Shown here one piece after another: positions 3,049 to 7,726 of a stretch of 21,139 nt of DNA (position 1 is its first letter; each line of letters opens with the position of its first letter). Below the pieces are notes generated by a model that ran no database searches, was not told the origin of the DNA, and saw nothing but the letters and a program-made list of their open reading frames with translations. Source of the DNA: Candidatus Baldrarchaeum yapensis (GTDB taxonomy: Archaea; Asgardarchaeota; Baldrarchaeia; Baldrarchaeales; Baldrarchaeaceae); NCBI GenBank assembly GCA_016840465.1, contig JAEOSH010000042.1, positions 1-21,139 of the forward strand, read 5' to 3'. The position numbers and the translations under genes are program-made.

Positions 3049-5232
3049 ATGCTCATGTTCATAGTAGGGTTGATACTTGCAACGGCAATCGCGGGCGTCG
3101 TGGGCGCAATAGGGTTCTTTTACCTTGTAAATAAATATGGAACCGGAACTGAGGAAATGCGGTCAGTGTGGGTGGGCATACGTCAGGGATCCAGCGCATA
3201 CCTTAACAGGCAGTTCAAGACAATTATGGGAATTGCGCTGATAATAGCGATCTTCATAGCACTTCTCGGAATAGCACTCCCCATACAGACGGAACATGGC
3301 CCAGACTACTATTATGGCGCGAAGATCGCGGGGTCGTTCATACTCGGTAGCCTATTCTCAATAACAGCGGCGTACATAAGCATGGACGCCTCAACGAGAG
3401 CAAACGTGAGGACAACCGCAGCGGCGGTCGAGAGCACCAGAAAGGCACTAACGGTCGCAACTTATGGAGGTGCAGTGTTAGGACTGATGGTCATTAGCAT
3501 GAGCCTCCTGGGACTGACAATCTTGTACATAATATTCAGAGACCCCGCAATACTCGCAGGATTCGGATTCGGAGCAAGCCTAGCAGCCCTATTCGCTCAA
3601 CTCGGTGGAGGAATTTACACAAAGGCTGCCGACATCGGTGCGGACCTGGTTGGTAAGGTTGAGGTCGGAATTCCGGAAGACGACCCGAGAAACCCGGCAG
3701 TGATCGCTGACCAAGTGGGCGACAACGTAGGTGACTGCGCAGGTAGAGGAGCGGACCTGTTCGAGTCCGTCACCGCTGAGAACCTCGGAGGTATGATCAT
3801 CGGAGTTATCCTCTACTTCATAACCGGAATAGAGCTGTTTATTATACTGCCATTGCTCGTCAGAGCAATCGGAATTCTGGCGACATTCATAGGGGTGGCG
3901 GTCTCCGTCAAGTATGAGAGGTTCAGCGACCCCATGACACCACTGCGAGTTGGGTTCTTCGTATCGGCCGCGGCATGCGCGATAATTCTGGGGCTTGTAC
4001 TGATGTTCCTGATTCCGGAAGCGGCACCACTCTACCTGTACGTTGCGGCCCTCACGGGAATAATTGCGAGCATCTTCATAGTGCTGGAAACGGAAATCTA
4101 TACCGCCAGTGAGTCCACTTACGTCAAAAGAACGGCCGAGTCCGCACAGACGGGAGCCGCGATCAACATCCTCTCGGGTCTCGCATCCGGTATGGAGTCC
4201 ACCGCGCTGCCAATAATAACGATAGCGGCAGCACTGGTGATCTCCTTCTGGCTCGGCATGGAGTGGGCGCAGGTCCTAGGATTTGACAAGTTCATCGGTG
4301 GAGTCTACGGAACAACAATGGCGACCATGGGAATGCTCTCTGTCTGTGGAATGGTACTGACGATGGACGGTGTGGGACCAATAGTCGACAACGCGGGTGG
4401 AATTGCCGAGTTAAGCGGGGCGGAGAAGGAATTAAGAGATAGATTGGATCCCCTAGACGCACTCGGAAACACAACGAAGGCGCTAACTAAGGGATATGCG
4501 ATGGCCTCCGCTGCGCTCGCCGCGCTCCTGCTGTTCCAAGCGTTCATCCTAGAAGTTGCGAGATACGAAGCGGGAATATGGGAGTTGACGAAACTCGATC
4601 CGGAAACTCTCAATTTGCTACTAAACAAGATTCACGGCTTCACTGATATGCTTGCTCTTAACAAGATAGTGGTAGTGATTGGTGCGTTCATTGGCGCAAT
4701 GATTCCGTTCCTGTTCTCAGCGACTGCAATTAGAGCCGTCGGAGACGCGGCACACGTGATGGTGGAGGAGGTCAGAAGGCAGTTCAGAGAAATACCCGGA
4801 CTGCTGGAGGGCAAGGCAAAGCCCGACTATTCCAGGTGTGTCGATATTAGCACCAAGTATGCACTCAAGAGAATGGTCGTACCGGGAGCCGTCGCAATAG
4901 TCTCGCCAATACTGGTCGGATGGCTGTTCGGATGGGTTGCAGTCGGCGCCCTCGTGGTGGGTGCCACCATAACGGGTGTGCCACTAGCGATAACGATGAT
5001 GTGGGGTGGATGTATCTGGGACAACGCAAAGAAGTACGTTGAGGCCGGACATTTCGGAGGAAAAGGATCCCCAACTCACGCGGCGGCGGTGGTCGGTGAC
5101 ACTGTTGGAGACCCGTTGAAGGACACCGCTGGCCCGAGCCTCCACATACTGATCAAGTTGCTCAACACGGTGTCACTGGTGTTCATACCGCTATTCCTCG
5201 CAGCGGTGCTCGCCGGAGTTTTCGTTATATGA
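3049..5232 (+). CDS. hppA: Membrane-bound proton-translocating pyrophosphatase, K+-independent type
   Basis: Motifs DIGADLVGKVE, EDDPRNPAVIADQVGDNVGD and GDTVGDPLKDTAGPS. GNTTKALTKG carries Lys at the position that marks K+-independent enzymes. 727 aa with many TM helices. Confidence 0.97.
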   Translation: MLMFIVGLILATAIAGVVGAIGFFYLVNKYGTGTEEMRSVWVGIRQGSSAYLNRQFKTIMGIALIIAIFIALLGIALPIQTEHGPDYYYGAKIAGSFILGSLFSITAAYISMDASTRANVRTTAAAVESTRKALTVATYGGAVLGLMVISMSLLGLTILYIIFRDPAILAGFGFGASLAALFAQLGGGIYTKAADIGADLVGKVEVGIPEDDPRNPAVIADQVGDNVGDCAGRGADLFESVTAENLGGMIIGVILYFITGIELFIILPLLVRAIGILATFIGVAVSVKYERFSDPMTPLRVGFFVSAAACAIILGLVLMFLIPEAAPLYLYVAALTGIIASIFIVLETEIYTASESTYVKRTAESAQTGAAINILSGLASGMESTALPIITIAAALVISFWLGMEWAQVLGFDKFIGGVYGTTMATMGMLSVCGMVLTMDGVGPIVDNAGGIAELSGAEKELRDRLDPLDALGNTTKALTKGYAMASAALAALLLFQAFILEVARYEAGIWELTKLDPETLNLLLNKIHGFTDMLALNKIVVVIGAFIGAMIPFLFSATAIRAVGDAAHVMVEEVRRQFREIPGLLEGKAKPDYSRCVDISTKYALKRMVVPGAVAIVSPILVGWLFGWVAVGALVVGATITGVPLAITMMWGGCIWDNAKKYVEAGHFGGKGSPTHAAAVVGDTVGDPLKDTAGPSLHILIKLLNTVSLVFIPLFLAAVLAGVFVI

Positions 5233-5272: not shown

Positions 5273-5343
5273 ATCTTCTAGCAGATATCTCTCATTTCCT
5301 AAAAAGCCTCTTCCGATCGCGTGGGAATTCCGTTTTATTTTCG

Positions 5344-5739
5344 CTACAAAATAAACACCTGCACCTTTCTAAGCCTACCAGTACTTGCATCTGGTATCAT
5401 GCCTGCCGACTCCACGGTCGTGATTCCCACGACCACCGAATCGTCCACACCACTCTCCCTAAGAACTCTCTTAACGTTCTCGTTCATCTTAACGACTAAT
5501 ACTCTCTCGTAGTTGAGCACTTCTCCCTCTATCACAAACTCGCGAACGATCCCAATTTCGCCTTCCAGTTTGTGTCCCGTGATTCCCACAAGCCCCCTTC
5601 TCCTCCCCGTATAAATCACGCCTATAAAATCCGCTACTTTCTTGTCAATAACAGTAATGGCGGCTCCACCATCCACGAGCGCAGGATGACTACTCGAATT
5701 CCTACTCCCTTAAAGAACAACATGTGTCTTTACGAGCAT
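5344..5739 (-). pseudogene. Retropepsin-like (clan AA) aspartic protease, interrupted by in-frame TAA
   Basis: The single frame reads MLVKTHVVL*GSRNSSSHPALVDGGAAITVIDKKVAD...VVVGITTVESAG, with TAA at 5712-5710. ALVDxGA and the VG(I)TT(V)E motif are typical of small archaeal retropepsin-like proteins. The catalytic D-T/S-G is D-G-G here. Confidence 0.7.
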
Positions 5740-5753
5740 TATTATCCCGTTCT

Positions 5754-5931
5754 GACTCTCCGCCACTTTTGTTGCAATTGACGCGTGCGTGGCGGAGAGC
5801 CTTCCCGTCTCGGGGTCCATCGACGGGCCTTCGCGGGGAGCGGTACTCCGCACATCCATCTGACCCTTCGCTCCGCCCTTTCGGGCTTCCCTCCCTCTCA
5901 CCGTCCCTCCCACATCCCGGGCGGAGCCCGC
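5754..5931 (-). ncRNA. Candidate structured RNA / cis-regulatory leader of unknown family
   Basis: About 68% GC (hand count, 5761-5930). Stems: 5870-5878/5919-5927 (9 bp); 5754-5766/5789-5801 (13 bp with one G-U on the minus strand); GCCC-GAAA-GGGC (5875-5886); GCGG-AGUA-CCGC (5840-5851); CCCGUC/GACGGG (5804-5827). TATA box about 25 nt upstream. Confidence 0.5.
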
Positions 5932-5948
5932 TTAACACAGCAGAAGTC

Positions 5949-5964
5949 CTTTATAAGGGTTTTG
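5949..5964 (-). promoter_or_regulatory. BRE + TATA box (CAAAACCC-TTATAAAG) upstream of the structured element
   Basis: Minus-strand TTATAAAG at 5956-5949 with an A-rich BRE-like element upstream. Standard archaeal spacing puts the start site at about 5931, where the GC-rich segment begins. Confidence 0.55.
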
Positions 5965-6093
5965 AGGTTGCAAAGGTGCGTGAAGGCAGCAAATGCAACA
6001 CTATACGTTTCTGCCCCGATTCTTCCATTAAGCGTTTTCCTATAAAAACTCCGAGTTTTTAACATCAGAATCAATATGTCAGAGGAATACAAA

Positions 6094-6130
6094 TCTAAAA
6101 GAAAAAGAAGGAAGAAGAAAACTAACTAAA
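6094..6130 (-). terminator. Pyrimidine/T-rich terminator tract after the acyl-CoA ligase remnant
   Basis: Minus strand reads TTTAGTTAGTTTTCTTCTTCCTTCTTTTTCTTTTAGA immediately after the stop codon at 6135-6133. Confidence 0.5.
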
Positions 6131-6132
6131 TG

Positions 6133-6612
6133 TTAGGGTAACACGACATCCTTGTACTTCTCGCGCAGGACCTTCTTGTCCTTCTTCCCGACGCTCGTTT
6201 TTGGAATTGAGTCGACGAATTCGAACTTGTCCGGAATCCACCACTTCGGAATGACTTCCTGCTCCACGAACTTCATCAGGTGATTCCGTAGCTCATCCTC
6301 TATAATCTTGCCCTTGTACTCCGGCTTCGGAACTACGACCGCCAGAGATCGTTCACTCCACTTCTAGCTCCTGACTCCAATGACCGCAACCTTGGCAACC
6401 ACGGGATGCCTCGATATGAGATCCTCAAGTGTGGTCGTCGATATCCACTCACCACCGTTCTTCGTAACGTCCTTGGGCATGTCCACAATGAGAATATACC
6501 CTCCTCATCGACTTCCGCAACGTCTCCCGTCCTGAACCATCCATCTGGGGGTCTAGGACTCCGCAGTCCTCTCCGGATCCTTCCAGTAGCCAAGCGTGAG
6601 CCATATCAGGCG
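6133..6612 (-). pseudogene. C-terminal remnant of a fatty-acid/acyl-CoA ligase (AMP-binding family)
   Basis: Reconstructed: WLTLGYWKDPERTAES*(fs)DGWFRTGDVAEVDEEG(fs)...KDVTKNGGEWIS...HPVVAKVAVIGVRS*KWSERSLAVVVP...IPKWWIPDKFEFVDSIPKTSVGKKDKKVLREKY. TAG stops at 6555-6553 and 6366-6364, two frameshifts, and the N-terminal bulk of the gene is missing. Confidence 0.9.
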
Positions 6613-6999
6613 TCCTTCTGTCAGTTGGTTTGAGGCAGTATTACGATGCCAGCCGCGCCCTTCTACTTTTTCGCATACTTGTCATAGACAATCGTTAGCT
6701 TAGCAAGAGACAACCTTTTGGTGGGGCTCGATGCTACGGAGAATTTAAAATTATTTGAGAGCCTTGCAAAACCCCGTGGACGACCAGTCGCGGAAAGAAA
6801 CCATATATGAACTTTTTGAGAAAAACCAGCAAACCATATTGCGTTGAGCGGAATTATAATTCCTCGACATTCTTTGTGGCGAGATGTACGGAAGTTCCTG
6901 CCATGTGATGCTCACATATCAGCTGAAGGTGATTTCTTCATCATGCCGCCATGGAACACTAATATATCGGGTTAAGTATCGTATTTATGGTGGTACATT

Positions 7000-7275
7000 A
7001 TGTATCAAAAGAGATACAAAGTGAAGGTGCTGTCAGGCTACCGGATAACCATCCCTATGGAGGTCAGGGAAAGGTTCGGAATAAAAGTGGGGCAAGAACT
7101 CGAGATGGAGGTCGGGCCGGGAGAGATAAAAATAGTGGTTTCGAGAGATGATCCTGTTTTCGGGATGTTGGGAATCGCAGAGGGGGCGGTAAGGGAGAAG
7201 GGTGACGATCTTTTTGCAAGGGAGGTTGAAGAGAAGCTCCGAAGAGGGCGGGAAAATGAGGTTCGTGGACGCTAA
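7000..7275 (+). CDS. vapB: AbrB/MazE/SpoVT-family antitoxin (VapB-like)
   Basis: KVLSGYRITIPMEVRERFGIKVGQELEMEV is the AbrB-fold signature. Overlaps the downstream PIN-domain gene by 20 nt. Confidence 0.88.
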   Translation: MYQKRYKVKVLSGYRITIPMEVRERFGIKVGQELEMEVGPGEIKIVVSRDDPVFGMLGIAEGAVREKGDDLFAREVEEKLRRGRENEVRGR

Positions 7276-7726
7276 TATTTTCATAAACTGAATGTCAGCG
7301 GGACGGAAGCTAAAACTAGATGAGGCCCTCTCGGGTTATATACTTTTCAAAATTTCCAGATATGAGCGCGCACTCACAACCACGCTCGTAAAGGATGAGG
7401 TTCTGATATGGTTATCGAGACACAGGGCTAGCGCGCTGGCAAAGTTTCTGAACTCGGTAAGAATGATGCCGAACCTCGAAATAGTGGTCCCCACGATGGA
7501 GGACGAGAAGTTTGCGGTCGAAAACTTCGGCAAGTATTCCCTCGGAATTTCCGATCTTATAAACTTGGGGGTCATGAAGAGACTGGGAGTGAATGAAATC
7601 TACACCACCGATAAAGGTTTCGAGAATGTAGGCGTCAAGGTGGTATTTTCCGAATTGAAGAGTGAAAGCGAGTTTGAGGAATTCCTATTGGAACTAAAAC
7701 GGCGAGGCTATGAGGTTAAGACCTGA
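7256..7726 (+). pseudogene. vapC: PIN-domain toxin (VapC) with in-frame TGA at codon 12
   Basis: ATG 7256: MRFVDANIFIN*MSAGRK...VKDEV...ISDLI...YTTDKGF. TGA at 7289-7291. The conserved acidic PIN residues are otherwise present. The ORF-track call (7292-7726) lacks the first catalytic Asp. Confidence 0.85.

Follow-up and report, generated by a model that had tools for sequence, protein, structure and literature searches.

Elements of the IS607 family whose TnpB guide RNAs have been characterized are the closest described systems to the locus reported here. Their targets and TAMs are TGGG or GGG with a GG core dinucleotide, their scaffolds end in ...UCGG or CGG, the CGG present at an occupied site escapes cleavage, and in a studied system TnpA requires just ∼60 bp at each end (10.1101/2023.11.20.567912; 10.1101/2023.08.09.552727). 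TnpB guide RNAs contain three stem-loops, the first of which pairs with the 3′ end of the scaffold as a pseudoknot (10.1101/2023.11.20.567912; 10.1101/2023.08.09.552727). For ISXfa1 the guide is 17 nt long and is derived from the right flank, TnpA repeats are reported in stem-loop 3, and a single mismatch in the pseudoknot strongly lowers TnpB activity (10.1101/2023.08.09.552727).

We have examined a GC-rich island in a 21,139-nucleotide stretch of DNA (the window) from the Asgard archaeon Candidatus Baldrarchaeum yapensis. The best explanation, to which we assign a probability of about 0.8, is that positions 6013-5747 on the minus strand constitute a protein-less, non-autonomous derivative of the IS607 family that carries a TnpB guide (omega/re) RNA scaffold. 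As in CboIStron and ISXfa1, the core would be GG, the G-rich TGGG/GGG target would double as the TAM, and a scaffold ending in ...CGG would leave the occupied site uncut. The scaffold would likewise extend over the end of tnpB and fold into three stem-loops, the first of which would pair through its loop with the 3′ tail as a pseudoknot and the third of which would carry TnpA repeats. The element differs in being a natural deletion derivative that lacks tnpA and tnpB, whereas the mini-IS of those systems were built in the laboratory, in having an archaeal TATA box directly before the scaffold and an Asgard host, and in lacking both an 87-nt parental segment and an intron.

Gene-less elements are also found in the IS200/IS605 group, where PATE-like IS605 elements encode guide RNAs and a dependence in trans has been proposed by Meers et al. 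(PMC10055086). Those of Geobacillus stearothermophilus resemble the window element in that they encode no protein, have retained the ends of the transposon together with a scaffold for the guide RNA, and rely on TnpA and TnpB supplied in trans from other loci (PMC10055086). They move, however, as single-stranded DNA by means of a Y1 HUH transposase, with hairpin ends and a TTGAT-type TAM; the window element, in contrast, would belong to the serine-recombinase IS607 family and would use GG-core recombination.

ISC1733 is a member of the IS607 family, and Berkner and Lipps reportedly described in 2007 an element of Sulfolobus islandicus, SMN1, as a MITE mobilised by it. SMN1 and the window element are alike in being archaeal and non-autonomous, in their size of ∼300 bp and in their need for the transposase of a full-length IS, a likeness of description and not of sequence. 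The accessible part of the source gives SMN1 as a 320-bp MITE mobilised by ISC1733 and, as a point of difference, that part discusses neither a guide-RNA scaffold nor a promoter for it (PMC3718332). A literature search with the subjects TnpB, MITE, archaea and guide RNA returned no description of archaeal IS607 mini-elements that have a guide RNA and a promoter of their own. If our reading is correct, the locus provides a natural IS607 example of a mini-transposon equipped with just a guide RNA and an archaeal promoter of its own; a candidate new RNA of archaea is struck off, and a family of GC-rich islands in an Asgard genome is explained.

A GC-rich island and the repeat that contains it

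The first-pass annotation of this DNA, which was made from the sequence alone, had flagged positions 5754-5964 as a GC-rich island with multiple hairpins. The island is real: GC content is 67.0% over 5747-5931 (minus strand) and 62.6% over the exact span flagged, compared with 47% and 41% in its flanks and 49% in the whole window, and stacked stems are present. Its single-sequence folding energy is unexceptional (z = -1.6 for the minus strand and -1.75 for the plus strand), such that the sequence by itself is insufficient proof of a structured RNA. The view that the island is non-coding is borne out by the near-identical copies described below, between which indels of 1-2 nt disrupt all reading frames. 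The suggested comparison with Rfam by cmscan was run and matched no known family, with nothing in the window reaching the gathering score and the GC island lacking matches even at E<=10, and ARAGORN finds no tRNA in the island. A scan for bacterial sigma-70 promoters and terminators gave nothing within the element, although its models are bacterial and irrelevant to archaea.

A search of the same genome with the island yields 19 matches, 12 of them near full length. These 12 are 87-98.5% identical when compared by BLASTN with wider flanks, and there are besides two diverged copies (about 75-78% identical), two shorter variants and some fragments, several copies being located at contig ends. 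The total in the genome is about sixteen elements, decayed copies included. In an alignment of 14 copies with 60-nt flanks the homology begins CAGAAACG and ends ...CAGAACGG, the flanks are unrelated, and in every aligned copy the homology terminates exactly at the AGAACGG right end. The flagged island therefore stands as part of a larger unit, with the true extent being 6013-5747 on the minus strand. The features of this unit are as follows, in the order of the minus strand.

6014-6017, minus strand: left flank GGGG, TAM-like target that includes the GG core dinucleotide (comparison of the flanks of 15 copies)
6013-5747, minus strand: whole element of 267 bp, probably non-autonomous and IS607-derived (sharp ends in the multi-copy alignment)
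5964-6013, minus strand: left end (LE); its counterpart in a full element at C96:26179 is 80% identical over 46 nt
5950-5956, minus strand: TATA box TTATAAA preceded by an A-rich BRE-like stretch (conserved in copies)
5927-5931, minus strand: predicted transcription start (from the usual ∼25-nt archaeal distance to the TATA box)
5870-5927, minus strand: 5′ domain with P1, a 9-bp long-range stem pairing 5927-5919 with 5878-5870
5837-5849, minus strand: stem-loop 1 (nexus-like), 5849-5845 with 5841-5837 (99% of cells paired)
5838-5843, minus strand: putative pseudoknot strand CCGCUC, complementary to the 3′ tail of the scaffold
5804-5827, minus strand: stem-loop 2, 5827-5822 with 5809-5804 (two double changes, GC to UA and UA to CG)
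5754-5801, minus strand: stem-loop 3, a 13-bp stem with a 22-nt loop (two double changes; CG to UA in 8 sequences)
5747-5753, minus strand: right end, which is the 3′ tail of the scaffold, AGAACGG; the final GG is the core dinucleotide
5730-5746, minus strand: would-be guide, ∼17 nt of host flank that overlap the ATG at 5739 (by analogy with ISXfa1)

The two ends, CAGAAACG and CAGAACGG, are direct and not inverted, and there are no terminal inverted repeats. The four nucleotides that precede the left end are GGGG in 11 of 15 copies, TGGG in two and another NNGG in the remaining two, and the right end reads ...ACGG, placing GG at both junctions. The left-end pattern allowed two substitutions and is loose, so only hits paired with a right end were used. 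Two motifs in the left end, CACGCAC (5982-5976) and TTGCAAC (5973-5967), both recur in the loop of stem-loop 3, where they are probable TnpA sites.

In contigs from four public metagenome runs, depth over the repeat is ∼5-20 times that of the flanks. Contigs of four DNA runs contain no empty-site joint at the window locus, and those that cover the flanks enter the element by ∼30 nt on both sides. When the element is deleted in silico at the loci of four other copies, frames of 118-276 codons become open again. The right-end pattern was not found in viral contigs.

Two further observations concern the variety of copies. Contigs in two of the metagenome runs join position 5811 to 5992 and skip 180 nt, which may mean that the community contains, at some other place, a far shorter derivative of the element, although we hold this with low confidence as one side of the join is only 20 nt long. 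Two copies share an identical left flank of 29 nt (C39:1-29 and C69:3436-3464) but have different right flanks; because C39 begins at a contig end, an assembly artefact is likelier than recombination between copies.

Kinship with an IS607-type tnpA-tnpB element

At two other sites in the genome the outermost parts of the repeat, its first 46 nt and its last 116 nt, occur ∼1.85 kb apart. One of these, C96:26179-28026, encodes both a TnpA serine recombinase and TnpB. The TnpA protein (204 aa) has HTH_17 at residues 5-53 and Resolvase at 59-191 (91.6 bits), which is the domain order of IS607-type serine recombinases. The TnpB protein (436 aa) has a Cas12f1-like TNB domain (76.8 bits), a weak OrfB_IS605 match, and CxxC...CxC and ADRD motifs, and it matches solved TnpB/Cas12f structures at E ∼1e-11. 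The interval C76:22493-24413 was considered as a second full element and rejected, because its right end is part of a short copy in its own right (221 bp; C76:24193-24413) and its two ends enclose unrelated ORFs (V4R domain).

Between the repeat and the C96 element identity is 80% over the first 46 nt and 83% over the last 116 nt, and a third block of the repeat aligns inside the Zn-finger codons of the C96 tnpB gene. The 5′ domain of the scaffold sits within these Zn-finger codons in the full elements, and the homologous 116 nt lie directly 3′ of the RuvC-III (ADRD) codons on the tnpB strand and extend to the boundary of the transposon. An 87-nt block of the full element that encodes the RuvC-III motif is absent from the mini-element, where it would fall between the 5′ and 3′ domains. 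Retained in the mini-element are the left end, a promoter with a TATA box, and a stretch of ∼185 nt that comprises the tnpB 3′ end and the right end; the TATA stretch appears to align with codons 3-7 of tnpA in the full element. The same 116-nt right end is located 3′ of tnpB in four or five genomes, these being the genome of the window itself, Candidatus Asgardarchaeum abyssi, two other MAGs of the phylum and one MAG labelled Undinarchaeota. Judged from these alignments, the GC island probably corresponds to the tnpB 3′ end and the right end, the region in which TnpB guide (omega/re) RNAs are encoded.

This relationship bears directly on the proposal of the first-pass annotation that the island is a gene for an undescribed, free-standing structured RNA with no tie to mobile elements. 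The lack of a match to Rfam or to tRNA is what such a gene would show, but the unit is multi-copy, has transposon ends in common with a tnpA-tnpB element and is homologous to the 3′ end of tnpB, and these results refute the proposal. An IS end, which the same annotation had named as an outcome that would count against it, is what the comparison revealed: the ends are those of an IS607-type tnpA-tnpB element.

The tnpB frame of the full element has an unusual terminus, in that it is open through the GC-rich scaffold and continues in host DNA for 105 nt beyond the right end (C96:26822-28132; L025:1623-2933), such that the C-terminal ∼35 residues are encoded by the flank.

Right-end scaffolds were also seen in MAGs that carry various labels, at the loci L051:5884-6043, L054:978-1093, L052:5146-5256, L053 and L055 outside of the window genome. 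A MAG labelled as an uncultured archaeon contains a mini-element with the same TATA box, one labelled Undinarchaeota contains a full element, and one labelled Thermoproteota contains a full element and a mini-element, although a genome tool places this last MAG in the phylum of the window. The presence of the right end under the labels of other archaeal phyla suggests either horizontal spread or mislabelled bins.

Predicted promoter, scaffold and pseudoknot

The first-pass annotation had placed a BRE/TATA element at canonical distance from the island, and we agree with this placement: TTATAAA at 5956-5950 precedes the first stem by ∼25 nt. This box is conserved among all copies of the window type, including those that are only 75-80% identical and a copy in another MAG.

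The hairpins that had been described are present as well. The GAAA-tetraloop hairpin is GCCC-GAAA-GGGC at 5886-5875, the 13-bp stem (5801-5789 with 5766-5754) contains one G-U pair on the minus strand, as had been stated, and further stems were also found. The tetraloop hairpin is enclosed by P1, to which it is an alternative. P1 also forms in the Zn-finger codons of tnpB in full elements, with 12 bp in C96 and 10 bp in G138b and with CG/UA and CG/GC exchanges, and it is retained in copy C76b despite the loss of the loop that it encloses; it is, however, unformed in two other full-length relatives, which counts against the guide-RNA reading. In the copy from the MAG labelled Undinarchaeota a natural deletion leaves a stem 3 of 8 bp, and this still pairs.

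The check for covariation among homologues that had been recommended was made with an alignment of 22 sequences, all of them close relatives, and compensatory changes were found in the stems. Across the three stem-loops 95.8% of cells are paired, compared with 38-52% when the partners are slid, four pairs change on both sides, and none of 500 shuffles attains the observed covariation score. Because the sequences are closely related these statistics are inflated and overstate the independent support for the guide-RNA reading, which we take to be moderate. The cells that distinguish the strands are 25 G-U and 0 A-C for stem 1, and 24 G-U and 11 A-C for stem 3; in stem-loop 1 all of the G-U cells are on the minus strand. 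This one-sidedness indicates that the minus strand is the RNA strand, as had been supposed. The right end lying 3′ of tnpB, the stems that covary and the ACGG end all fit published IS607 systems.

Taking these systems as a guide, the element could behave as follows. TnpA supplied in trans by the full element would excise the mini-element and insert it at the GG within GGGG or TGGG sites. The element's own promoter would give rise to an RNA of ∼200 nt composed of the scaffold and ∼17 nt of right flank as the guide, and this mini-element RNA would be bound by TnpB from the full element. After excision TnpB would cut the rejoined empty site, where TAM and guide match are both present, and recombination would restore the element; the occupied site would be spared because the guide is preceded there by ACGG instead of GGGG. 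Guides of 16 nt from 15 copies match the genome perfectly at their own loci only, which fits homing and gives no hint that host genes are targeted.

The pseudoknot complicates this picture. The sequence CCGUUC, formed by the loop and the 3′ side of stem-loop 1, complements the last six bases of the scaffold, GAACGG, perfectly in 15 of the 22 sequences and is present in all of the full-length elements, and in C75 the complementarity is maintained by wobble pairs; among the 22 sequences there is no double compensatory change in the pseudoknot. The window copy is a member of the tightest cluster, six copies with 95-98.5% pairwise identity, and all six of these together with C28 – the window copy and its six closest siblings – have CCGCUC in its place. 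This variant converts a G-U pair of stem-loop 1 to G-C and introduces one C-A mismatch into the pseudoknot, and a single mismatch of the pseudoknot strongly lowers the activity of the ISXfa1 TnpB. A second point against the guide-RNA reading is the 87-nt segment missing between the domains, which bears on compatibility with the sole cognate TnpB. The RNA function of the window copy is unproven.

With the youngest subfamily carrying a C that weakens the pseudoknot, it may have spread without a working guide RNA, and the likeliest of the alternatives is that the window copy is an inert relic, an IS607-derived MITE moved by TnpA only and giving no functional guide RNA, with stems that were inherited from the parent or are only TnpA binding sites. 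The most recently amplified copies being those with the weakened pseudoknot does suggest that TnpB is unneeded for spread, and the genome has one cognate tnpB for its ∼16 elements. An inert MITE is nonetheless difficult to reconcile with the retention of a scaffold of ∼185 nt where ∼60 bp per end suffice for TnpA in the studied system, with the inclusion in that scaffold of a stem derived from tnpB coding sequence, with the conservation of the TATA box in 75-80% identical copies and in another MAG, or with the persistence of stem P1 in an internally deleted copy. We therefore consider it unlikely. The youngest subfamily is distinguished by its pseudoknot variant, which provides a straightforward way to test whether elements of this kind need TnpB.

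A more elaborate view, which we regard as distinctly speculative and quite unlikely, is that these guide-only, promoter-equipped elements are satellites that exploit the TnpA of one IS607 master for movement and its TnpB for retention, with the youngest subfamily now escaping TnpB or nearing a host role. The mutation of that subfamily would then be one that strengthens stem-loop 1 while weakening the pseudoknot. Were this so, the host role could be that of a mobile outward promoter at G-rich ribosome-binding sites, or of a decoy RNA that soaks up TnpB.

Insertion site and neighbourhood

The window copy is flanked by ...AATCGGGG on the left and GATAATAATG... on the right. A TATA-like box (6048-6041) precedes the insertion by ∼30 nt, and an ATG (5739) follows it after 7 nt, 14 nt beyond the last stem, as had been noted; to judge from the sequence the insertion probably coincides with the position at which transcription of the downstream gene would start and with its G-rich ribosome-binding site. 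This gene (5344-5739, minus strand) has a weak retropepsin-like match of 23 bits, below the Pfam cut-off. Codon 10 is an in-frame TAA (5712-5710), and DGGA replaces the catalytic D-T/S-G-A motif, for which its intact paralogues at C69:18272 and C12:17574 have DTGS or DSGA; it is for these reasons probably a pseudogene. A search of 40 relatives for an orthologue, which could have supplied an empty site, found none.

The arrangement had suggested to the first-pass annotation that the island might be a regulatory leader of this protease gene, and in its fuller form the idea is that the outward TATA box transcribes the retropepsin-like gene with the scaffold as a long 5′ leader. It is in keeping with the 7 nt between the right end and the ATG, with the separation of the gene by the insertion from the TATA-like box at 6048-6041, with the terminal GG of the right end, which partly restores a GGGAU Shine-Dalgarno-like motif, and with the lack of a strong oligo-T terminator after the element. 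Yet an ORF on the same strand starts within 80 nt (<=80 nt) of the right end in only ∼4 of 15 copies, four or five copies lie inside ORFs, and the gene in question looks like a pseudogene. The 267-bp unit occurs ∼16 times, and since its copies are in unrelated contexts, some of them inside ORFs, the family is not the leader of any one gene. We consider the leader very unlikely, and read the scaffold at this locus as that of an IS607-derived element.

The neighbourhood of the locus, 5340-7290, is a patch of pseudogenes and repeats. To the left of the element on the minus strand is a decayed C-terminal fragment of an AMP-dependent acyl-CoA synthetase (6133-6602, minus strand) with several stops and a frameshift, whose DNA is 73% identical to a paralogue at C89:285-746. 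Beyond it, 6605-6734 is a member of a second and unrelated repeat family, ∼125 nt in length, of which the genome contains ∼8 copies that are 76-91% identical; its right boundary is sharp (...CCTTTTGGTGGGCTCG), metagenome contigs cover it at ∼10 times the depth of the flanks, and it could be a MITE or a small RNA. Ordinary neighbours are found on either side, a PIN-domain protein of 144 aa at 7292-7726 (plus strand) and a membrane H+-pyrophosphatase of 727 aa at 3049-5232 (plus strand; 796 bits).
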